The position numbers and the translations under genes are program-made. A stretch of 64,000 nt of DNA from Balanoglossus misakiensis (lineage: Eukaryota; Animalia; Hemichordata): the NCBI GenBank assembly GCA_040954595.2, contig CM082585.2:7403808-7467807 (forward strand), written 5' to 3'. Shown in pieces: positions 30,630 to 58,802 of this stretch. Position 1 is the stretch's first letter, and each line of letters begins with the position of its first letter. The notes under the pieces were generated by a model. The model worked only from the letters and a program-made list of their open reading frames with translations. It did no database searches and was not told the DNA's origin.

Positions 30630-32960
30630 ATGGCGGCGTACAATACGGTCAAGACTGAAGATATAGATCAACATTTTCTGCAGTGCGCCTTCTGTCTTGA
30701 GAGACTTCGGAAGCCGAAAATTTTGAATTGTCTGCACACCTTCTGCAAGGACTGCCTGGAACAGTGGGTGAAGAAGAATTATGGGAAGCTGATATGTCCG
30801 GTGTGCCGGAATGAGTACCCACTTCCGGAAGAGGGAATCCCGGGACTTCCGGATAACTTCTTCATTAACAACATGATAGATTTCTTAGAAGACAGGAAGA
30901 ACGGGAAGGCTGTCAGCTCTATACCGTGTCACGGGTGTGAGCAGGGAGCCACCACCTACTGCGCTGACTGCACCGAATTTCTGTGCCCCGACTGCTCGCA
31001 CGTGCACCGCAGGTTAAAGGTCACGCGGATGCATCGTCAACTGTCGATGGAGGAGTACCAGTCCACGCACGATGGAGCGTTGTCCACCCCTCGCCCTGTC
31101 TCTTGCCCGAGCCACGAAGGCAGCGAGATTGAATACTACTGCGAAACCTGCGACGTTCCCATCTGCCTCAAGTGCACGGTGGTGGAGCACAGGATCCCCG
31201 AGCACAAGCACCAGTACTGCAGCGAAGCGGCCGACAAGCAGCGGCCGATATTGGAGAAGCTGCTCCACAGGGCGCAGGAGAAGATCCCGGTCTTCGAGAA
31301 CTCCCTGGACAACGTCAAGTTCGTCCTGCAGCAGCTTGATGGCGAGAATGAGGCGGCCGTGGAGAGGATCCGAGAGCAGAAACGCAGTCTGCTGGTCGCC
31401 ATCGATCAGAAGGAGAGAACCGTCCTGCAGGACCTGGCGGACACGTACAAGGGCAAGAGGAAAATTCTAGAAGCCCAGCAAGACGGCCTGATGTTGGCGC
31501 TCGGCAACCTCAACAGCGGATGCGACTTCACTGAAAACTTACTGAAGCATGAAAACGAAGTGGCCATGTTGGCGGTGAAGAAGCAGACGTCCCAGAAAAT
31601 TCAGGACTTGTTGAAGATGTCCCAGGAGCTGAACACCCGGCCCGAAGAGAACGCCTGCCTGCAGTTCGTGCCTAACGACAAGTTGCTGCAGAGTGTTCGG
31701 CAGGAGCCGATCGGCGCTCTCATCAGAGGCAATGCGGTGGCTGCAAACTCGACCCTTAATGCTGACAGGCAGCAGTTCGCCACAGTTGGTGCAGAACACA
31801 CCCTGGTTCTGACCACACGGGACCGAAACGACAGGGAGGTGATGCAAGGCGGTGCCATGGTGACAGCAAAGGTCAGGTCTCCCAGCGGAGCAGTTGCTAT
31901 GGTGAAAGTCACAGACAACAAGAACGGCACCTATGACATCACGTTCCGTCCAAACACGGAGGGAAGGTACAAGCTGTACGTGTCCGTCTTTGGCCAACAG
32001 GTCAATGGTAGCCCCCTCACCATCGATGTAAACCCGTCGAGGAAGCTGAGTCTGGTGATCGGCAAGAGAGGAGAAGCTAGCGGTCTTTTGAAGGAACCCT
32101 GGGGAGTTGCGGTCTCTCCAAATACCTCCGACGTGGTCGTTGCAGATTCTGGCAACCACCGGGTCCAGGTGTTCCACAAGGCCGGGCCCTTCAAAAGAGA
32201 GTTCACCTTCCATGGCTTTGAGAAGAAGTTCGACCCCCTCGACGTAGCAGTGACCCACGATGACCAGATCGTCATATCCGACTACGCCAACAAGCAGATA
32301 GTCGTCTGTGACATCGGTGGTCGCCTGATCCGCGCCTTCGGCAGTGACATGATGAAGTGGCCGTGGGGTGTCGCAGTCAACAGCTATGGCGATATCCACG
32401 TGGTTGATTATGAAGACCACTGCCTGCGCATCTTCGACTCGGACGGAGTTCACATCAAGACCATCGGTAGCAAAGGCAGCGCCCCGGGTCAGTTCCGCAA
32501 CCCCCTGTGCGTCGCCATCAACAGCAAGAACAACATCCTGGTCACCGACAGGGAGAACTCCCGCATCCAGATCTTTGATGAGGAAGGCAACCTGCTGTAC
32601 ATATTCAAGGCCCCCGGGGAGGAGGAGGGCCAGTTCAAGTATCCCACCGGCATCGCCGTCGATGCCCACGACAACATCATCGTCTGCGACGACTGGAACA
32701 ACCGAGTGCAGATGTTCCGCGCCGACGGCACCTTCGTCCGGCGCATCGACAGCGACGCGGACGGCCTGAGGTACCCGGATGGTGTGGCGGTCACGCCAGA
32801 CGAGAGGGTGGTGGTGTGCGACTACGGCAACGACTGCCTGAAAGTCTTCGACTGCAAGTGCTTCTCGCAGCCCCGCGCCCAGGTCTTCCTCGTCCTGAAC
32901 GAGGCTGGCACAACAAGGAAAGTCGTCACGTCTTCGGTGCCGAATATATTCGTGGCCTGA
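30630..32960 (+). CDS. TRIM-NHL E3 ligase (RING, B-box1, B-box2, coiled coil, filamin, NHL repeats); TRIM71/TRIM2/3-like, single coding exon, 776 aa
   Basis: RING CAFC..CLHTFCKDC..CPVC. B-boxes CHGC..YCADCTEFLCPDCSHVH and CPSH..YYCETCDVPICLKC..H. Filamin VTDNKNGTYDITFRPNTEGRYKLYVSVFGQQVNGSP. NHL repeats such as FRNPLCVAINSKNNILVTDRENSRIQIFD. Acceptor ttccag at 30616 implies upstream non-coding exon(s). Confidence 0.95.
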   Translation: MAAYNTVKTEDIDQHFLQCAFCLERLRKPKILNCLHTFCKDCLEQWVKKNYGKLICPVCRNEYPLPEEGIPGLPDNFFINNMIDFLEDRKNGKAVSSIPCHGCEQGATTYCADCTEFLCPDCSHVHRRLKVTRMHRQLSMEEYQSTHDGALSTPRPVSCPSHEGSEIEYYCETCDVPICLKCTVVEHRIPEHKHQYCSEAADKQRPILEKLLHRAQEKIPVFENSLDNVKFVLQQLDGENEAAVERIREQKRSLLVAIDQKERTVLQDLADTYKGKRKILEAQQDGLMLALGNLNSGCDFTENLLKHENEVAMLAVKKQTSQKIQDLLKMSQELNTRPEENACLQFVPNDKLLQSVRQEPIGALIRGNAVAANSTLNADRQQFATVGAEHTLVLTTRDRNDREVMQGGAMVTAKVRSPSGAVAMVKVTDNKNGTYDITFRPNTEGRYKLYVSVFGQQVNGSPLTIDVNPSRKLSLVIGKRGEASGLLKEPWGVAVSPNTSDVVVADSGNHRVQVFHKAGPFKREFTFHGFEKKFDPLDVAVTHDDQIVISDYANKQIVVCDIGGRLIRAFGSDMMKWPWGVAVNSYGDIHVVDYEDHCLRIFDSDGVHIKTIGSKGSAPGQFRNPLCVAINSKNNILVTDRENSRIQIFDEEGNLLYIFKAPGEEEGQFKYPTGIAVDAHDNIIVCDDWNNRVQMFRADGTFVRRIDSDADGLRYPDGVAVTPDERVVVCDYGNDCLKVFDCKCFSQPRAQVFLVLNEAGTTRKVVTSSVPNIFVA

Positions 32961-45721: not shown

Positions 45722-47593
45722 TCAGAATCACACATACGTCTGTACATACTGGACTTGTGTGCGCGCCCGACAGGCAGAGCGACTGTGTAGTGCAATTTCA
45801 GCCAATCCAAAGCATGCAAAGCATGATTTTCGGCTAATCTAAAAAAGTACTCTATTGATTCTGCACTTTCTCGGTGTTGCATTCTAATCATGTTTAATCG
45901 GTGGAAGTTTTGGTTTACTTGCCAAACTTCCACAGCAAAATCTCAGAAATGGTTATAAATTTCAATTGATTAATTTGGAATATCACGCTTTAAAATACAA
46001 TACATTTATATTGGTTACTGATAAAGCACATATTACATCATGTTAACCGAGAAGAAATCTACCACATTTCAATATTTTGACATGTTCTCTTGACATGTAG
46101 AAAAAAAATAATCAGAGGACACATAACAAATGTTGGGGATTTAAAACAAATCAGTGTTGAACGTTTGCAAACAAAGTGTGTTTGTGATGAACATTTTGTC
46201 GGCAAAATGCATTGGCAGTGAGAGAATGTTGCTTTTTGCTTTTATGGGACAGGAACCAGTGGGGTCACTAGGTGGCCATCTTGTTCTTACATCTAGAGTT
46301 TATATTTGTGCAAGCCAGGACTGATTTATTTCATATACAATGAAGTTAAGGTGCTACACATGATTTCATTCACAAACTTGTCACCAAGTCTTTTGCCAGA
46401 ATTGGTACCATGTTTATTGTTTAACGCTTATTGATTTGTTGTATAAGCTGGAAATTTATATAGGCTTTTATGTATACCCCACGAGTGTCAAAGCAGTGCA
46501 ATGATAATGAGTTAATGACTCGAAATGTTAATCTACAAATTTTCTCTAATGGCAACTATTTCATATCATGGCTCATTTTGTTCACACATCATTTCAGGCC
46601 GCCCGCTACCATGGCATGTTTGGAAACGTTCAAAGATCATGTCAACTGCCTGTTCTTTTGTTTCTATGATTTTTAGGTCATAATATGAATAGTAGGCAAT
46701 GTTGTTTTTGTTCATTTACTCAAGAAGTTATGTCAGTGGGTTGTCAGACACATGCAATGATTTGAAATCATTTGAATCCCAAGACCCATCATAGCGTGTG
46801 CACAAGATGGCCGACCAGTTGAAAACAAAACAAGCCACTGTTTGTTGAATCCTACGAATGTATTATCATAAAGATGACAGATACAGTGGTTGGGAATAGT
46901 GGCTAATTACAACAGACTCTGTTGCTTATTTCGATGGATGTCTATTCATTAACCATGTTGAATGTGTCTCACAGAAATCACAGCAGAACTTTAATTATCA
47001 GTGTATCATTGTCAAATCTGTTGTCCTGGTATATTTTGCACGCTTTTGTGACATCTACCCGTACCCGTGATAAATTAAGTTTTGTGTAAACAATAATCCG
47101 GAAATCAAATGATGTGAATAATGTAACTTTTCCTCAATTTAAAACTTAATTTTTGATTTGTTTGCGATCGTTTTGAATGGACATTATTTACGAAGTGTGA
47201 AGTTCACTTTTTTTGTAGTCGGTGCTAACTGCAAATGTATTGTGCTGCCTTTCTGTGTGTACATTTACTTCCATTGCTATGGTAACCAAGAAACCTTTGT
47301 CTGTAAGGAAACTACAAAGGGAAAGGAGTAAGAATAAAAAATGAAATGCAATGACTTGTCTGTTTTTTATCTAAAAATAAAAGAATATACATTACACTAC
47401 ACTACTTTGTTCATTCACAAATTGATTTATGGATTTGACACCAATGTCCGAAAATATGCTAGTGTCTAGTCTTAATTGTCAGCCATTAGTTTCACTTGTG
47501 ATACCAATGGAGACTTTGCTGTTTAGTTTGTAAGGTTTGGTCACTAAAAAATTAATTATTAACTATGTCCAATGGCACTGGCAAGGAACCAAG

Positions 47594-47680
47594 TTAGCGC
47601 CACCAACGTTCACTCGTTCAAGATGGCGTACAATGGTTGAAATATACATGTACATACCAGTACACTCGTCGAGTAAGTAC
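47594..47680 (+). promoter_or_regulatory. Copy of the RSRC1 promoter/non-coding first exon upstream of the chimeric NLR
   Basis: TTAGCGCCACCAACGT..CAAGATGGCG (YY1-like)..TCGA|GTAAGTAC matches TTAGCGCCATCAACGT..CAAGATGGCG..TCGA|GTAAGTAC at ~54680-54862. Confidence 0.6.
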
Positions 47681-48205
47681 ATACGATGTAATCGTCTTCT
47701 GGCACGACTGATGTTTACCCGTTGGTGGGGTGAATCATTAAGTTTAATCACATGGCTGTTGCATCAGTTGGGCTTCGCGGTTTTTGTGGAGTCACCGCGA
47801 TTCGGATTTTCGAGGTCGTGACATCCGGGTGTGACATAGGCGGAAGTTTACTTCTATATATCTAGCCTCCACAGGTAGCTGCAGTTCAGTAGCTCGAGGT
47901 TTTGCCTTGGTTTGTCTAACACATAAAGAAGTATTCTATCGTAAAATGTGGACCACTCTATGCAAAACACATATAATTCCAATGAACATATTAATTTTTA
48001 CAAGATTACTATTATTTAATACTGGAAAATACCATTCTATGTGGTGGTGGGACTGTCCTGGTATAAGCCTAAGGATGAGTTAAAATTGACAGACATCATG
48101 GGTGTACCTAATATATTCATCAGTGTGCCTTTTCTTTTACAGCAAACTTCACAGCTGAATAAAGTAAATTCATATGAGGTGAATTTCTAAAGTTCACAGT
48201 AAATC

Positions 48206-51200
48206 ATGGGGAAAAAAAGTAGGGCAACTCCTGAAGACAGTGACAGGGACAGAAAACGACACAAGCATGCAAAACATTGGTCGCAGTCTCGAAGCCATGA
48301 AGGAAGTTCTGAGAGAGGCCGTGGTTTGTGTGATAGTCACGAGGTTCGTAAACGCAGCTCAAAGTCACAAAGTGTACAATTTGACAGTAGTAGCAGCTCT
48401 AGTGTATCAGAGCATAGTCATCAGACATCCAGAAGTAGAGCAAGTGGTTGTCAAACGTCCAGAGGCAGATCAAGTGGTCTTCGAAAGTCTAGAAGCAGAT
48501 ACCGTGGTCGTCAAAGGTCTAGAAGCAGATCACAAGGTCGTCGAAGGTCTAGAAGCAGATCACGAGGTCGTCGAAGGTCTAGAAGCCGATTACAAGGTCG
48601 CCGAAAGTCTAGAAGCAGATCAAGTGGTCGTCGAAAGTCTAGAAGCAGATCACAAGGTTGTCGAAAGTCTAGAAGCAGATCAAGAGGTCGTCGAAAGTCT
48701 AGAAGCAGATCACGGGGTAGTCGAAGGTATAGAAGCAGATCACAAGGTCGTCAAAGGTATAGAAGCAGATCACGGGGTCGTCGAAAGTCTAGAAGCAGAT
48801 CTCGAGGTCGTCGAAGGTCTAGAAGCAGATCACGAGGTCGTCGAAAGTCTAGAAGCAGATCACAAGGTCGTCGAAGGTCAAGAAGAAGATCACTTGGTCG
48901 TCAAAGGTCTAGAAGCAAGTCATGTGGTCATCAAAGGTCTCAAGTATGTAACATTATGTTTATAAATCAATGATTAATTCTTATAACATAAACCTGTCAA
49001 GATTACAGAACTTCCTTTTATTTTATTCAAATTTCATTTCATTTCAAAGACATCAAAATATGTGTAATGCAAAGAACAGAAATTGTTGGAAACATATCAA
49101 CAAAGATGACATTCATAATGATATTATTCATGTACTATTCAAATATATCCTTTCAAAAATCTAAAGGCTCTGTGAATACATTTCCTTCTGTTGCGTTTTT
49201 CACTTTAGTATAAGTGAAATTTTGGAGAGACAAGTCTTATTTAAATTATGTTTTTGCTGTTTGCATTTTTTTCAGGGTACAGAGGTTGAGGATGACAAAA
49301 TGAGGATTAAGAAAGCTGTGGAGGCGGCTGGTAAGTTAGATAATCCTTTAACCCTTTAAGGACTGAAATTTTTCCCACCAAAATTTTTGAACAAAAATTC
49401 TTGTTTCTCTGTAATTTTTTGACATAAATCAACTTTATTTTAGATCAGAATAGAAGAAATATTACTTCCTAATGCAATAATAATGTTATATTTTCAACAA
49501 CAAAAAACGGTCATAAAAATCAAATTTCTCAATTCTGTATTGTTCAGAGTTGTCTCTTGGCATGAAAGGGTTAACCCACTTCATGTGTTACATGTTATAA
49601 GACCAGTGTCAGATAATCTCTGAGGCTAGTTTTAAAGCTTTAAACTTAAACTTTAAAGGCATGTGAATTGGCAACTATCATTACTTCATCGTCAATAATC
49701 AGCAGGTGAATTGGAATGAAATGAATTAATGTGACAACAGCATACATAGTCAGTGAAACGGAACATTCTTGTAAAAATTGTGTTGTCATGATGTTCATCT
49801 GTATGAAAATCAGAAAAGTAAGAATTTGCTTTGTCTTACTTTCATAGAAAAAGACAACCCACCAGACAGTGGAGAGCAAGATCTAGATGATTTTGTTGTG
49901 TTACTTCATGAAATTGCTGTTGAAATAAGCCAGGGTGAGTAATAGTTTTAAAATTCCTGTGACATTTTTCATGCTGTCTTGATGTGAATACCACTCAAAA
50001 TTGAATTTTATTATTGTAGGTTTTGATTTGATGTCCAGATTATAGGGGGTGACAGTATTTTACACCTGTGTGTGTGGAACTGGAGAAACTATAAATTACT
50101 AAACTGGCCTGTTTTGTGCAGAAAATGTGCAGCTTTAGTTTAAATCTGTTGTGTCTGTCCATAGCTACCGGTATATCAGATGCACTTGAATGATTTCCTT
50201 CAACGCTATATATAGCATGTTTGATATACTTTATTTCAGAAAATCTTGGTCAAATGAAATTCCTGTGTAGAAATAGAATACCGACGGCAGACCTCGACCA
50301 GGTTGAAGACTTTATTGGCTTGTTTGAAAAGTTACTGAACAGAAATCTTCTCAGTAGGAACAATAAAGAGGTCCTTGTCAAGTTGCTTAAAGGTTGTGCT
50401 AGGTACGATCTTCTGGAGAAGGTTAATCCTTACCATCCAGGGAGTATTTCAGGTAAGTGTGTTGGATTGATTGTTCATTCATTCATTCATTCATTCGTTC
50501 ATTCATTTATTCATTCATTTCCTGGGTGGATGCTATATCAGTTGTATCATAGACACTCAATTTTCCTAAAAAAATAGGATTCTTGTTTTTTGTTTGTATT
50601 TACTTAAAGGTATTGTCATCTGTTTATTTACTTAAAAGATATACAGTCATCTATGCAAATTATTCAATTTTCATCACTATGCATTGCACATGACAACATT
50701 CCATCTATGTCTGAAATAATCGTAAAAAGTACCATTTTTTGTACATATATGATTCCCTTTGAGTTCTGTGTCTGACCAAAATGCCAAATGAATATTTTCA
50801 TATTTCTTATTCCAGACAGTAAGGCATGGTTAGTAAGCTATCTGCAAAAGAAGTACCAGAAGCATTTTGAAAACTTCAAGCCTGTTCCTTGGAATGATAA
50901 TCTGTCGCTCAGTTTGACAGAGATGTACACAAGGCTGAAAGTTATCAAAAGTGACAGGAGGCAGATTTATAAGACGGGAGACATCTTGGAAAATGAACAT
51001 GGCATTTTCAGCAAAGGTGACTCGTCTGAATGTTATCAACGAATCAAAATTGAAGGTGCACCTGGTATGGGTAAATCAACCTTCTGCAGGAAGCTGGCTT
51101 ATGATTGGGCAAGTGGTAAGATGCCACAGTTTGACTTGGTGTTTTTACTAGAAATGCGCCATGTGAGACAAAGTACATGTACTTCCAATTGGGAATCCAT

Positions 51201-53577
51201 CATTTTTGATCAACTTCTTCCTCTTGATTCTCACGTAACACAGCCGACACTTTCCAGTTTTATTTCTCAAAACCAAAGTTCAGTCTTGTTTTTACTGGAC
51301 GGTTTTGATGAGATTGAAACCAAAGCAAAGCATAGCTCAGGCATTCTTGATGTAATAGAAGGGAAACGGCTATCAGAGTGCACTGTTGTCACCACTAGTA
51401 GACCACATGATTGTGATGAGGATCTTAAAGATAGCGATGTTCATTTCACAATAGAAGGCTTTTCAACAAAAAAAGCGATAAGTTACATAACCAAGTATTT
51501 CAAGGATGAAGGTCTAGCCAGTAGCCTTATATCGGAGCTAAAAGTAGAAAATGTTTCACATTTACCCACCCATAATTATTGGCAAGTTCAATCCCAAACC
51601 CCTACAGATGTTCACATACATGATTTGCTGCGTAGCCCGCTGCATCTGGCATTTCTGTGTCTGTTATGGGAAGAGAAACAACAGATTCCAACATATGTGA
51701 CTGATATTTATTCTGAAATATTGGATTGTATCTTGAAGAGGTATTGTTGTAAAAACGGCATAGAGCTGTGTGCTGGAGAAGTACCACAGGGTGTCAAGGA
51801 TGAAGTGAATAAGCTGGCTGGTTTTGCATATACAGCTTGTAAACAGAATAATTTGATGTTGGATGAAAAGTGTCTGTCTGAAACAGCATTGTCCTTGGGT
51901 TTGTTGGTAAGGGATGCAGGAATTTCAAGAATCAAATTGAAGAGGCGCTGCTTTTTCTACCATAAAACATGGTTAGAGTATTTCACTGCACTGCATGTCT
52001 GTCGCAGTAGAAATCCAGCTAATCAACGTTCACTATTTGAAAGTGTTGTCAAGGAAGGACAGGTCTGTGTTTTCCTGTCTGGGCTAGATAAAGACAACGC
52101 CAATCTGTTTTTACAGTTTCTAATTCAGGATATGCAAAAGAAATATAACACGCCTAAAGTGATAAATGATGAATTTTCCTTAATTTGTAAATGTCTTTGT
52201 GAAGCCAGGATGAGTAAAGATTATTTAGCTGATTTTTTACCAACACATTTAGTAATTGCATATAAGATGAGCATTTCAGATCAAGCATTATTCGTTCCTT
52301 TTCCATACCTTTATACTGATATCAAATGTAAAAGTAACCAATATGGGTTGATAGCTTATCATCTTTCAAGTTGGGTTAGGAATGAGCAAATCTTTGACAT
52401 GTTTAAAATGATGAAAAATGAAAATGATGCAACACAAAATCCACAGCACTTAATACTGTTATTGCCAGGATTATCGCCATTTCCAAATATAATTCAACAT
52501 ATAACCCAGCATGTGATTAGTTTGGCATCTTTAGAGTGCCATGGTATTTCATTTGACTCAGCAAAGATTTTGGCACAGGCATTACAGAATGGATGTCTTC
52601 TGAAAGCCTTAAAATTATCACTGGATTTAACTGGCTACGATGAAGACCACATGTTCAGCACAATGTATTTAGAGGATTTATACCGTTCTGTCAGTGCCAA
52701 TAATCATCTTGAGGCATTTGAAATAAAATTGATGTGTCATAGGGAGGAATACATATCTCCCTTTCCCTCTAGAGTAGTGTATCAGTTTATAGAAAGGAGT
52801 CCCAAAGAGTTTAGTATATCATCATCATGTATTCCTGAGGATATCGTGTCACTGTATAAATTTATCACACAATGCAAACAAACAAGGAAATTTATACTAA
52901 CGCTTCCTCCAGAAGTTTTTTCATTTTTTCCTATAGTTACACAAGATATCCAAACCATATTGCTGTTAGCATTATCACATGCCAGTGCAAATTTGAACTC
53001 TCTTACTTTGAGAGAATGTTTAGATCTTTCTGATAATGAGATCATTGAGAAACTTGTATTTGCATTGAATCAAAAGAGTACTTTGACAAATTTAGAATTG
53101 GTCAGCAGGGATCAAAGTCAGAAATTCATGCCAGGAGAATCCAAGGCACTTGTGACGGCAGTGAAATATTTAGAATCTTTAACCTTTGGTATGTTCTATA
53201 TTGAATCTAGTGATATCAGTCAGCTTATAACAATTCTTGGGCAGCCAACTTGCCTGCAACATTTCTCACTGAAAGTCACACTATATGATGAATTTGTTGA
53301 AAAATTCTGCAATGACATCATTCAGGTAATCAAAGGTCTCATTGAAAAGCGGAAAACTGTCAGTTTATGTTCAGTCACATTTCAAATCTTTGTAAAGGAG
53401 CAGAGATCAGTTGATCTGATTCGTACAAGGGTCTCATCTGAAATAGATACTCAGTATTTGTCACTGTTTGAGAACTATGGACATGACACCCACAGATTCT
53501 CTATTGTAGCACGAGAATATACTTTTACATTTCGGAGAGTAGTGAGTATTCTCATGTATTTCAAGGAAAAGTTATAG
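48206..53577 (+). CDS. Chimeric NLR: RSRC1-derived RS domain, death-effector domain, NACHT and degenerate LRRs (~1284 aa)
   Basis: Exons 48206-48943, 49276-49330, 49848-49934, 50240-50452, 50816-53577 join in frame through canonical GT-AG sites (3855 nt, no internal stop). DED: FVVLLHEIAVEISQENLGQMKFLC..LFEKLLNRNLLSRNN..LLKGCARYDLLEKV (RxDL motif). NACHT: Walker A GAPGMGKS, Walker B LFLLDGFDE, VTTSRP, LRSPLHLAFLC, FYHKTWLEYFTA. RI-like LRRs such as LAQALQNGCLLKALKL and LVFALNQKSTLTNLEL. Confidence 0.82.
48446..48943 (+). repeat. 30-bp coding minisatellite (~16 units, consensus GGTCGTCGAARGTCTAGAAGCAGATCACRA) encoding GRR(R/K)SRSRS(R/Q)
   Basis: The 30-nt period is exact from 48476 to 48926, with no indels. 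Confidence 0.95.
49352..49570. mobile_element. Non-autonomous piggyBac-like MITE (~220 bp)
   Basis: Flanked by TTAA (49348-49351 and 49571-49574) with terminal inverted repeats CCCTTT..AAAGGG. AT-rich interior with no ORF. Confidence 0.6.
50474..50520. repeat. (TTCA)n microsatellite in an NLR intron
   Basis: Visible directly. Confidence 0.85.
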
Positions 53578-55209
53578 AGGCAAACATAAAGTCTTAAGGC
53601 AGAAATAAAGCCATAGGCATCCAAAATCACAGGTGTTGAACACACATTAACCATTTCTGCATATAATTTTGTTTGGTGGTCTTGGACATTCCAACAGGTC
53701 AGATGTTAGCTAGTCAAGTCAAAATTCCGCCATCGGTATATAATGTTTTGTAGTCTGAGAAAGTACACACATTCCCACTTACATCTACATGAGTTTTCAT
53801 CTTGGCTATTCACTCAGATTGACAATTAGGTAAATCCAGGAACTTCTTGAGATTGCTGTAATTCAGCTGCTTAATCTGTAACTTTGATCAGTGATATCAT
53901 TTCTCTAGAAGAGATTTTGCAATTCAGTTGTCAACTTCTAAAGAATGAAATGAGAGGTATACATATGCATATAATTTTTCCACCTGCAATAAATGAGTAT
54001 CATGAGAATGTCATCTGTAAGTTACATAAATGTTACTGCCAGTTTATTTTGTGCTTTTTTCCCCCAAAGAACAACTTTACCACTATGGTCCAGTCCAAAT
54101 CCATTGTTTTCTATGGTAAGGTTGGACCTGTAAAGAGGGAACTGGGGTGAAATGGTTAATACTGTCAGATATTTGAAGTTTTGGTATTCAATGATGTAAT
54201 ATTTTGATTCTGTGATATCTTTACAAATTATGTACATGCAGGTATGTGTTTTGAGACACCCATACATAACTTGTACATGTAAATAAAATGTAAATATTTT
54301 GTCTTACAAGTATATATTTAAACCTGTAAATAGCTGTATATAATAAAAGTTTTATTTTTATAAAGACACATGTCTTTGTGTGTGACCAGTTAATTTGTCC
54401 TCAAGCTCTGCTGGGGTGGAGTTTGGAGTCATGGCATGCTGCCATGGAAGAGGTCCTGGTGGTATATAGTTTTGTGTCTGTGAATGGGTACTACATATTG
54501 CCTGCTCGGTCGGGATGTTTCTATAATGCCAGCATCAATGGAAGTTCCCAGGAAAAAATATAGAGAGACACAATTACATGTAAAAGTGGTTTAGCCATTG
54601 AGGCAAAATCAAAAGTACCCAAAATCAACCATAGATCACCATGACAACCACTGTCTCTGATGACAGAAGCTTTTGTAAATTAGCGCCATCAACGTCGGAT
54701 TGTGACATACTGTCCAAGATGGCGACTTACATGTGAGCTTCTGTCGAGAGTTCTCGCTGGTGTGTTTGTATGTTTAAAGTGCGTCTTCAATGACTTCGTG
54801 AGGTTTAAACAGATATATCGCACCTAGCGAGTCTAGGTATACACGCTTATCGAGTAAGTACTATGCGATCACCTTTGAACAAGACAAATGCTATTCCAAT
54901 TTTCATTGTTGTTTGGGCCGGACGAGTTTTGTACACGCGAATCCCCCCCCCCCCCCCCCCCCAGCTGCAATGATTGTAGCGGGTGCTGCTAGGTTGACTG
55001 GTGTGTTCGCACCCACTACAATCATCGTAGCCCCCATCTCACCAACAGTTTGCGAAACCATACATTGATTTCCATGTTTAGTGGCACTGGCAGAGTGATT
55101 CACTTTTTGCATTCTGTACTGACATAATCTTTTCCTGTTACAGCCAGAGACATTTTGTGACACAGCGGAACATTTGAAATTGATGTGACACACTGTGGTA
55201 AAGTCAATC

Positions 55210-58200
55210 ATGGGAAAAAGTAGTAAGGCAACTGCTGAAGACAGTGACAGAGACAGAAAACGACACAAGCATACAAAACATCGGTCGCGATCTCGAAGCC
55301 GTGAAAGAAGTCGCGATGACGGTCAGAAATCCAAGAAACGCAGGTCAAGATCACGGAGTTCTGAGAGAGGTTCGCGTGGTTCGCGTGATAGTCACAAGGT
55401 TCGTAAGCACAGGTCAAAGTCACGAAGTGTGGATCGTGATAGCAGTAAACCGAAATCCAAGAAAAGTGACCGAAGGCGGTCGCGATCCCCATCACCAACG
55501 AGAGACTATTCTAGAAGAAGAAACCAACGTTCAAGAAGCCGATCACCTCTGAGGGAAGGTAGAGCGCGCGTACGTCAGAGGTCCAGAAGCAGGTCTCGGG
55601 GTCGTCAAAGGTCAAGGAGCCGATCCCGTGGTCGTCCAAGGTCGAGGAGTAGGTCTCGGGGTCGACAAAGGTCACGAAGCCGGTCTCGAGGTCGGCAAAG
55701 GTCAAGAAGCAGATCTAGAGGCCGCCTCAGGTCGAGGAGCAGATCTCGGGGTCGTCGGAGGTCAAGAAGCAGGTCACGAGGTCGAAGATCACGAAGCCGT
55801 TCAAACCGAAGAAGGTCAAGGTCAAGATCAAGAACTAGACAGTGAGTGATTTAAACATGAAAAATCTGTACAAGCATGGAATGTTTCTCAGGATTCTGAT
55901 TGAGAAAAATCATTATCTCTATGAGTGAATTTGGTCATCTAATTTCGTGTTTTTTTTCGTCCTCCCGATCACAGATCCATAGATCCTTTCGGCCGGGACA
56001 AGAAAAGGAGCCGAGAACGTTCCTACAGTCGGTCACCGAGCGTTCCAAGAGTGATGTTAGAAGGCTTTGTGCCAGTCACGGTGGAAGAGAAGAAAACCGA
56101 CCCATTTGCCAATATACCTGGCTTTGATGAGATGGTATGTATAATCGAAACAGTGAATTGCGAAACCAGCCGTAAAGTTGACACCCCACTCGTCAGAGAC
56201 TCTACCACTGTCGATTTTTCTTTCTTTCTCTCCAGACCCCGGCAGAGAAGACCAAGATTAGGATGCAGAAAGCATTGGAAGCTGCAGGTAGGAGAAAACA
56301 GTGTGAATTGATTTCTCTCAGTGAAACCCACATATACCGGTACCTTGTTTTATGTTACAGGGTAGCTTTATTTCGTTCATTATCCAGTTGGTTGATTTTG
56401 GTATTTAAACCTTTTTTTCATGTCTTTTCTTCAGCTTCAGCCGACGCAGCTCTTCGACAGAAAGGATTGTTGCAAAGCGGGGCAGGTTAGTGTTGACCTT
56501 GGCTTTGGCCTTTAAGGATACTCAATCACCTATGCAAAACCAACATGGATGTCATGACATGACATACCCAGCTTCTTGGTAGAATTAGAAAACAGTTGAA
56601 TGTTTTTGTGTAAAAGTCGTCATATTTTCGTGACACCAGCAACATACTCCTCTCTATCACAGAAAAGCTGACCTTTGCTGAACAAATGCAGAGACAACAG
56701 GCGATTGAAGATATAGAGCAAGAAGGTTTTGTGCCATCATCATTCAAGTCTTCTCAGGATTCCAAACCAGTCAGCCAGGTCAGCATCAACCAATCACATT
56801 GTCTCTTACATATTGTTAACCAGTCACCGATATGAACGACCAATCCCGCTGTTGTGTGATTGTCACGTGACTCTTATGAACCAATAGCAAGCTTTCAATA
56901 AATTTGGTGCGAAAGTTCAGCTCCACATTGCTTTAGGTGATGTCTTGTATTTAAAATAACCCATCTCTCCCCCCCATGCTGTACAAACCATTACACAGTG
57001 TTGTTTTCTTTCATCCATTGCAGGCTTCTCTGAGTGGTGCAGATGAGTCACATGACTCGGCCATATTTGGAAGTAGTGTCGGCAGCGTGCTGCCGTTCAC
57101 GATTTCAAAGACCCCCAAGCCCAGCAGTTTTGTTTTCAAAGAACGGGGCCCTCTAGCGTCGCACAGTGTAAGTATTGATCAGCAAGTCCAGTCTGCATTC
57201 TGCAACCTTGAAACATTTCCATGTGGGAATTTTTTTTTTTGAAATTGACAATATCTCCTTTGTAATTTCATAATTGAGTAGGGTCTCTTTTGTGTAGCAG
57301 GCTTTGTCTTGCCGCCTGTCGTTACAAGTCATTCCATGCGATAAAATTTCACCTGCCCCATTGCACTTTCTCACCAATTAACTTAATGGGCTTTTGGTTT
57401 CCCCGGGTCATTAATTTCAAGGTTGGACTTGTTCGTTGATTACGTGTAATGACAAAACAGGCATTGTTGAGGGCTTAATTATTTTTTTCTGTCAAGAAAA
57501 TTAAAGAGACAGAGAGACTGTCTCTTTTGACAATGTCTCTTTAACCTGAGGAAATTGTTCAGTTTGCAGTGGTGTCCAATTTTGGCAGGTTCATGTTATC
57601 TTATGTTGAAGACACTGTAGGGGTGTTGAGTGTAGGCAGGTTTCTGGATAAGAAAGGATTTGGTTTCAGAGTTTCAGCTCTGACCTTTGACATGATTAAA
57701 GTCCGAAGCGAAAACCGACAGTAAAAGAGACAATGGCATCACAGGCAGTGGAAATTTGTCTCCTCCAGGAACAGAAATCAATGTCTTGGTCATCGTCAAT
57801 GTGTCCTTCATTTGAACTTCTGCTTTCCTTCACATTGTTTGACGCAAACTTTTGTGACCGCTTTGTATCTCAACGTTGCTTGTAATGTAAACACTGAGAA
57901 GTCTCGTACGAGCAAAGCTGGTTGTGGCAGACATGTGCTGACCAGTTTAGCTGGAGCACGGATTGTGGTGATGATAACCTGGGGAGGCTCGGCTGTGGCC
58001 CGACGTAATCGCCTTCCAAGTCAATCTTGAGAGCTGGCTCCTTTGTGTGCACAATTGGTGATTATGTCATCAGTCATTGAGCACACAAAGGTGTCATCCA
58101 TCACCTTAATGAGCTTAAGGGTGTTGTTGTTTGTTGTGTGAACTGCTCACCAACACTTCAGGACATTTCTAGTGGCGCTGCGAAGTTGTATGTAAACAGT

Positions 58201-58802
58201 CTTGATCCATTATTGGGGGGATTGTTTGTCGTCTTCAAAGGTAGCTATGGTGAACAGCGCTTTTGTGGGAATCCGTAAATAGAGTGCACCATTTGCGACA
58301 CTTACTTCTTTCGACCTTCAGCAATATTCATAGAAAAAAAACCCACATCATTTTAATCTCCTTAATACTTCTACTGAATTCCAATATGGTTGCCCACACC
58401 GCTGGTCTGACCTTGTCACCGTGGCAACAGCCAATCAAACAAATATGTCACAATGCGCAATGTGTCCAAAGTTTGGGGCAGCATTTTGTGATGAATTAGG
58501 TTACGGCATTTTACAAAGTTTCATGGACTCTTTTTTGAAGAAGTACATACTTCAGTGATTGCAAATGGTGCATGAAGATTGTGATGACTATTAAAATTCA
58601 GGCAAGGGCTGACTATGATAATGAATACATGCTGTATTGAAAAACACAACATATGAAACATTGGCGTTTTTTTATTATTTTTTGTCAGTTGTTTGTCAGT
58701 CCGGAAGAGAAAGAAGAAAAGTGGATTCATAAGTTGGAAGCCATGAGAAAGGAGAAGTTATGGAAGTACAGAGCATCTGTCATCAAACAGGAGGAGTTTT
58801 GA
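55210..58802 (+). CDS. RSRC1: Arginine/serine-rich coiled-coil protein 1 (SRrp53), SR-related splicing factor
   Basis: Exons 55210-55841, 55975-56134, 56236-56287, 56435-56485, 56663-56778, 57024-57167, 58689-58802. An RS domain is followed by TPAEKTKIRMQKALEAAASADAALRQK, TFAEQMQRQQAIEDIEQEGFVPSSFKSS and HSLFVSPEEKEEKWIHKLEAMRKEKL, which resemble the conserved C-terminal blocks of vertebrate RSRC1 as I recall them. Confidence 0.82.

Follow-up and report, generated by a model that had tools for sequence, protein, structure and literature searches.

A stretch of 64,000 nucleotides of the Balanoglossus misakiensis genome (GenBank assembly GCA_040954595.2, contig CM082585.2, positions 7,403,808 to 7,467,807; hereafter the window, numbered from its first letter) carries a partial tandem copy of the splicing-factor gene RSRC1, consisting of promoter motifs, a non-coding exon, the exon for the arginine-serine-rich (RS) region and the first coiled-coil exon. 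This copy precedes a gene for a DED-NACHT-LRR receptor that belongs to the NLR (nucleotide-binding, leucine-rich repeat) type, and the predicted product is an RS-DED-NACHT-LRR chimera. A preliminary description of the locus, made from the letters alone, had proposed such a chimera; new here is a six-member hemichordate clade of DED-bearing NLRs, in which a host-derived module is predicted to stand before every DED. We put the probability that the RS tail acts as an integrated bait or sensor at roughly 0.4, and weigh this reading below against capture of a promoter, use of the tail as a localisation module and absence of a fused transcript.

Anatomy of the RS-DED-NACHT-LRR gene

When exons 48206-48943, 49276-49330, 49848-49934, 50240-50452 and 50816-53577 are joined, they give 3855 nt, that is, 1284 amino acids and a stop codon, with no internal stop; each of the four introns is bounded by GT-AG, and their phases are 0, 1, 1 and 1. 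Exon joining at the DNA level bears out the four predicted junctions, the stop-free frame and the in-frame phase-1 join described previously.

All features of the gene lie on the forward strand. The RSRC1-derived coding exon (48143-48943; ATG at 48206; residues 1-246) has the acceptor TTACAG in common with the parent (55143) and contains, at 48431-48940, a tandem array of 17 copies of a 30-nt unit encoding a 10-residue GRRRSRSRSR-type repeat, of which the parent has 7 copies at 55573-55784. This exon had been taken for exon 1; it is indeed the RSRC1 copy, but it is the second exon, behind a duplicated promoter and a predicted non-coding first exon (47620-47672, start approximate). Next comes a 55-nt exon (49276-49330) copied from the one that encodes RSRC1's first coiled-coil helix; fusion is predicted to occur at its phase-1 donor. 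The linker and the start of the DED follow at 49848-49934, with no in-frame Met, and the rest of the FADD-like DED, with an RxDL motif at residue 348, at 50240-50452; a DED is present, as described earlier, but these two exons together encode a single one. The last exon (50816-53577, stop codon 53575-53577) encodes NACHT, HD1/WH/HD2 and a predicted LRR region. Four AATAAA hexamers lie 3' of the stop (53604, 53988, 54282 and 54342; region 53604-54347), and none occurs in the introns of the coding region.

Pfam scans of the coding exons matched DED (PF01335, E 2e-15) and NACHT (PF05729, E 1.5e-30), and the nearest solved structure to the DED is that of FADD (E 3.7e-8). A motif scan confirmed that Walker A (residue 445; 51055-51078) and Walker B (residue 524; 51292-51312) are intact; these two, and the motifs that we take to be sensor-1, PL and winged-helix, occur once each. 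The LRR part of the earlier domain assignment found no Pfam match in the coding exons and comes from the predicted fold. Modelled with AlphaFold2 from a 28-row alignment (mean predicted local distance difference test score 75.7), the last exon resembles NLRC4, NOD2 and NLRP3 along its length in structure comparison. The whole model aligns to NLRC4 (4kxf_B) with Z 31.6 and a root-mean-square deviation (rmsd) of 13.2 over 743 residues, and for model residues 476-900 the alignment to ribonuclease inhibitor (4peq_B) has Z 16.1 and rmsd 5.4 over 331 residues, which predicts a C-terminal, ribonuclease-inhibitor-like LRR solenoid at about 52243-53517.

Origin of the 5' part from the adjacent RSRC1 gene

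The gene 1.6 kb downstream of the NLR (54677-58802, forward strand) encodes, by exon joining and homology, a protein of 423 residues in seven coding exons (55210-55841, 55975-56134, 56236-56287, 56435-56485, 56663-56778, 57024-57167 and 58689-58802). Pfam, PDB and Atlas searches gave it no name, but a full HMMER search of one exon against 1.84 billion representatives did. Three proteins matched: the best was Ptychodera flava XP_070537953.1 (P0096), annotated 'serine/Arginine-related protein 53-like' (E 7e-11, 86%), the second an unrelated fish protein and the third the Glandiceps talaboti orthologue (P0098; 203/309 residues identical). With 329 of 415 aligned residues identical to the P. flava protein, the downstream gene is identified by homology as RSRC1/SRrp53-like, orthologous over the RS domain and the C-terminal coiled-coil region; both the name and the intact state given to this neighbour in the preliminary description are upheld. 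The 10-residue repeat array is common to the parent and the P. flava orthologue and missing from that of G. talaboti, a distribution that suggests a ptychoderid source.

According to the parts of PMC7174030 drawn on here, human RSRC1/SRrp53 has an RS domain followed by a coiled coil, and the acceptor variant c.532-1 marks the start of a phase-0 exon. The chimera is similar in that its RS stretch precedes a coiled-coil helix whose exon also begins at phase 0; it differs in comprising the RS exon and one helix, both diverged, without the 160-nt exon and all C-terminal exons.

Alignment of the RS exon with its parent gave two matching segments, one of 110 nt with 88% identity (E 4e-35) and one of 74 nt with 85%, and confirmed the in-frame 48-nt deletion noted earlier, beside another indel of 3 nt. 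The proposed correspondence of the 55-nt exon to the 52-nt parent exon 56236-56287 also holds, with a score of 34 against a maximum of 22 in 300 shuffles (p = 0.003). The DNA had been called near-identical, which is true of about 185 nt only: the repeat arrays of copy and parent are 69-77% alike, and none of five intron comparisons and two flank or missing-exon comparisons rose above shuffles (p 0.06-0.91). Searches near the NLR found no trace of the second coding exon of the parent (160 nt) or of the exons after the helix.

Similarity reappears in islands upstream. At 47591-47628 (forward strand), a TTAGCGCCA-type box followed by CAAGATGGCG is collinear with 54677-54724 upstream of the parent (47591 versus 54677, p = 0.010); the non-coding exon has the donor CGA/GTAAGT, equal to the parent donor at 54854 (47662 versus 54843, p = 0.003), and the following acceptor corresponds likewise (48130 versus 55131, p = 0.010). 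These tests used 300 shuffles each, and their p-values are descriptive, the regions having been chosen by eye beforehand. TAGCGCC has three sites in the 64 kb, two of which are the duplicated promoter motif positions. The observed/expected (O/E) CpG ratio is 1.36 at the promoter motifs and 0.28 over 48944-50815.

A complete DED requires an upstream exon, since the exon at 49848-49934 lacks a Met, and the search for another 5' exon in the intron before it turned up only an ATG mini-exon (49788-49800), set aside because it would leave an intron of 47 nt. Because promoter and splice islands are kept amid diverged introns, the DED-start exon has no Met and AATAAA follows the stop but is missing from the introns, there is indirect but consistent support for the RSRC1-derived part being the working 5' end of the NLR and for the fusion being transcribed. 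At the DNA level, a module copied from an intact host gene stands in frame with an NLR, which is the structural mark of an NLR with an integrated domain (NLR-ID).

The same observations suit another account, namely that RSRC1 gave a promoter, 5' exons and a start codon, that the LRR senses, and that the RS tail is a tolerated passenger, contributing at most nuclear import. Regulatory and splice signals are the best-preserved parts of the copy, the Met-less DED-start exon needs some upstream exon, and expansion of the array from 7 to 17 units is possible through slippage alone. We regard this account, if doubtful, as a close competitor of the bait reading; it explains the window gene almost as well as a bait does, but not the clade to which the gene belongs.

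A hemichordate clade with host-derived modules before the DED

A search for homologues of the NACHT exon gave 92 matches (7993 candidates scored), the top ones being proteins of P. flava and G. talaboti, which makes an enteropneust source likely. The window protein and five relatives, to which it is 50-56% identical at the start of NACHT, form a clade with support 94/93 (40 rows, 245 columns); an approximately unbiased test rejected grouping of the window protein with 15 other hemichordate rows (p = 0.022, the group having been picked after the first tree). All the relatives are RefSeq predictions annotated 'uncharacterized protein'.

In four of them the DED is preceded by an OTU-like domain (Pfam E 8.5e-16, 1.5e-8, 0.014 and 0.034): XP_070536456.1, XP_070532842.1 and XP_070537049.1 of P. 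flava and XP_077991469.1 of G. talaboti (labelled P0001, P0002, P0003 and P0018, P0002 being the G. talaboti protein). P0002 matches human OTUD1 with E 9e-23. At the position of the Cys in the DGNC motif of OTUD1, which we take to be the catalytic residue, all four proteins, from two enteropneust genera, have Ser. We consider this domain a candidate bait of pseudo-deubiquitinase type or a candidate ubiquitin sensor. A search of the window for remnants of an OTU domain found none.

In the fifth relative, P. flava XP_070537198.1 (P0019), residues 133-288 replace the OTU domain and are identical at 153 of 156 positions to residues 194-349 of P. flava CDK11, whose gene lies on a different contig. 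Both flanks of this cassette are segments common to P0001 and P0018, and the residues at its junctions, read from the protein alone, fit a phase-1 cassette exchange; if the gene model is correct, the capture would be very recent. CDK11 activates the spliceosome via SF3B1, as reported in the part of PMC13194972 relied on here.

A module thus precedes the DED in six of six clade members: OTUD1-like in four, a CDK11 fragment in one and RSRC1 in the window gene. Among 15 hemichordate NLRs scanned outside the clade, 14 have a DED, which lies within the first 75 residues in 12 of the 14, and no other Pfam domain was found before the DED in these 14; the DED-less matches P0008, P0009, P0016 and P0020 lay outside this leader scan. 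The predicted proteins therefore point to repeated, different integrations at one site, with three module types in six members. Mere capture of a promoter leaves unexplained both the host-derived module in 6/6 members and the Cys-to-Ser change in 4/4 OTU domains, and the CDK11 cassette, lying between NLR-type segments, brought no promoter.

Three NLRs outside the clade have leaders or linkers that may themselves be captured pieces: residues 1-310 of P0005 (two DEDs), residues 1-168 of P0011 and a repeat linker in P0017. P0002 and P0003 have a long acidic insert C-terminal to the NACHT core, where the window protein (about 51550-51630) has 26 residues, two of them acidic. For P0098 and P0002, the RSRC1 and OTU-DED-NACHT proteins of G. 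talaboti, the contig given is in each case 24,455,516 nt long; the contigs of their P. flava counterparts differ in length from each other.

The RS tail as a possible integrated bait or sensor

Starting from the DNA anatomy, domain content, parent and three module types described above, we infer each functional step of the following scheme. The RSRC1 promoter would drive broad expression of the NLR, and the basic RS tail would carry the receptor to the nucleus or to splicing speckles and would be phosphorylated as other SR proteins are. Dephosphorylation, binding or cleavage of the tail by a pathogen would release the NACHT switch; the NACHT oligomer would then nucleate DED assemblies with partners of the FADD/caspase-8 type, leading to cell death or inflammatory signalling. 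In vertebrate systems, viruses are described as dephosphorylating or binding SR proteins (PMC6767064, in the part drawn on here).

The tail has 75 RS/SR dipeptides and a net charge of +88 over its 246 residues, which would also suit its co-option as a localisation, condensate or autoinhibitory module, rather than a bait, in an NLR that would regulate signalling or RNA processing from within the nucleus; CIITA/NLRC5 or DEDD, which act there, offer a comparison. As this account would have it, the two splicing-related captures are charged segments of low complexity. The pseudo-OTU in the same slot, however, is folded and better suited to a bait or ubiquitin sensor, and nothing in the Walker motifs, the DED or the predicted LRR is broken, which is what a switchable receptor calls for. 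We consider such a localisation role improbable.

Evolution of the captured copy and the weight of evidence

Several observations weigh against a bait. With P. flava as outgroup, 19 of the changes over 69 aligned residues fall on the NLR copy and 1 on the parent, 3 being ambiguous; at the helix, parent and P. flava are identical in 17/17 residues and the NLR copy matches in 9/17. Pairwise dN/dS (the ratio of nonsynonymous to synonymous divergence) is 0.66 in the RS exon (63 alignable codons, p = 0.34); in the helix exon it is 0.20 (17 codons, p = 0.034), which speaks for the bait, but as a pairwise value to which the parent branch contributes and whose dS is near saturation. Across 16 units of the NLR array, 10 of 25 distinct changes are synonymous (expected fraction 0.32, p = 0.40), which fits neutrality, 2 of the 15 nonsynonymous ones being artefacts of splitting multi-base changes. 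Beyond the copy itself, the splicing of RS exons onto DED-NACHT-LRR exons is predicted from DNA, and tblastn found no second NACHT gene in the window. A quick search (26 rows, 513 columns) recovered the six-member clade with a Shimodaira-Hasegawa-like approximate likelihood-ratio test value of 98 but did not recover its internal order, the unverified models of P0018 and the CDK11-bearing P0019 end past the NACHT core, and none of the 92 matches is an orthologue of the window NLR with an RS module. With regard to the lack of a partner, the plant NLR-IDs studied function as pairs, by the account in the relevant part of PMC4759852.

With 19 of 20 polarisable changes on the copy and an array that looks neutral at the amino-acid level, the idea of a bait that faithfully mimics RSRC1 is not supported; a tail that acts as a bait would serve as a generic RS tract. 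The broader integrated-domain idea fares better, in that the slot is filled in sister NLRs by an OTU domain with the Cys-to-Ser change or by a CDK11 fragment. Purification is strong in the array of the parent (6 units, 16 of 20 distinct changes synonymous, p = 2e-6). Relaxed or accelerated evolution of the copy is evident, and its rapid divergence and neutral-looking array suit a passenger acquired with a promoter equally well. Plant integrated domains are themselves frequently far diverged from their donors (PMC4759852, in part), so that rapid divergence neither excludes nor supports the bait model.

The NLR array has no stop. In 2000 simulations of a neutral RS exon of 210 codons, the frame remained open in 5.8% of cases when divergence was 10% and in 0.45% when it was 20%. 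We take these results to indicate that the frame has been maintained and the exact RSRC1 sequence has not.

The copied exons differ in synonymous divergence (RS exon 8/40, helix exon 7/11, p = 0.009), and gene conversion might have acted on the RS exon to produce the difference. This discrepancy, otherwise unexplained, counts in favour of a fusion that is not expressed, that is, an RSRC1 pseudogene fragment beside an NLR that is silent or starts elsewhere, or a mis-assembly, as do the relaxed amino-acid evolution of the RS copy and the fact that the locus is known from one assembly. An unexpressed fusion is difficult to reconcile with the stop-free frame of 1284 codons, the matching phases, the conserved signal islands amid diverged introns and the lack in those introns of an AATAAA that could end a short RS transcript; a mis-assembly, moreover, is at odds with a 64-kb sequence free of N and with a copy that differs too much from the parent for a haplotype duplicate. 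We judge this explanation unlikely.

In the first 34 residues, six are common to the NLR copy and the parent and not found in P. flava, so that the duplication, or the last conversion, likely followed the split from P. flava. The fusion can be called young, as it was before, in this relative sense, yet intron similarity has already been lost.

Within 48206-48445, CpG O/E is 0.58 in the copy versus 1.33 in the parent counterpart, and GC content at third codon positions is lower in the copy, which suggests methylation-driven decay following duplication. Two features of the tail were set aside as evidence. The array has CGA-to-CAA changes without CGA-to-TGA (9 vs 0), but CAA could be ancestral, or duplication could have spread it. 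The tail also has seven Q-G/S sites, absent from the parent and resembling 3C-protease sites, which are explained by CpG decay.

Comparison with known systems

Integrated-domain NLRs are a plant paradigm, and variation among animal NLRs has mostly been described as swaps of death-fold effectors. In the grass major integration clade MIC1, a variety of host domains have been joined to a single NLR clade again and again at the same site (bioRxiv 10.1101/100834, in the part drawn on here). The likeness, as far as that portion of the plant work extends, includes a donor that is duplicated and left intact, capture of intron-containing sequence at the DNA level and replacement of one integrated domain by another. 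The differences are an animal NACHT rather than NB-ARC, a module that precedes the DED, low-complexity segments in two of three module types, and, at the window locus, an adjacent donor that supplied the promoter too and no partner NLR within the window.

Closest to the window gene are the enteropneust NLRs with OTU(C>S) or CDK11 modules, which belong to the same clade and agree in DED-NACHT core and module position, the RSRC1-derived module being the difference. Invertebrate death-fold NLRs, as described in parts of PMC3879445 and PMC8662601, have a DED-NACHT-LRR core and N-terminal shuffling in common with our gene; the swaps described there exchange effectors (DEATH, CARD, DED), whereas here a host module is added before a retained effector. 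The main texts of these two papers contain no occurrence of 'OTU', and we found no RS-domain NACHT NLR or invertebrate OTU-NACHT architecture in a literature search that left supplements and most subscription papers outside its scope.

In animals, the tripwires of NLRP1 and CARD8, and TRIMCyp, sense the activity of pathogens through an N-terminal stretch that resembles a host protein or through a host domain that was captured. TRIMCyp, a product of retrotransposition, does not belong to the NLRs. The window NLR differs from NLRP1/CARD8 in that Pfam scans of its coding exons gave no FIIND match, and the last-exon model contains NACHT-LRR only, which makes functional degradation of the NLRP1 type unlikely.

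Tentatively, we propose that an acorn-worm DED-NLR lineage has a swappable phase-1 slot before the DED, that the baits captured in this slot were RSRC1, a fragment of CDK11 and a disabled OTUD1, and that this lineage may be an animal 'major integration clade'. If so, a plant-like integration strategy would operate in a deuterostome near the chordates, with the DED kept and pieces of the ubiquitin and splicing pathways added, and the captured pieces would list host processes under attack by marine pathogens. Splicing regulators would then have been captured twice independently, which would mark the splicing machinery with RS/RE domains as a target of pathogens over which nuclear NLRs stand guard. 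The locus also opens two questions to experiment: can splicing be guarded by an NLR, and how is a new gene built from the promoter and first exons of its neighbour?

Genomic neighbourhood

The window contains no NLR cluster. Pfam assigned five further genes upstream of the chimera: a VWC-repeat gene (about 6.8-11.9 kb, forward strand), a Cdc27/POLD3-like gene (about 13.2-15.0 kb, reverse strand), an intronless RING-Bbox-filamin-NHL TRIM gene (30630-32957, forward strand), a short-chain dehydrogenase (about 35.5-37.3 kb, reverse strand) and a USP gene (about 39.4-45.7 kb, forward strand).

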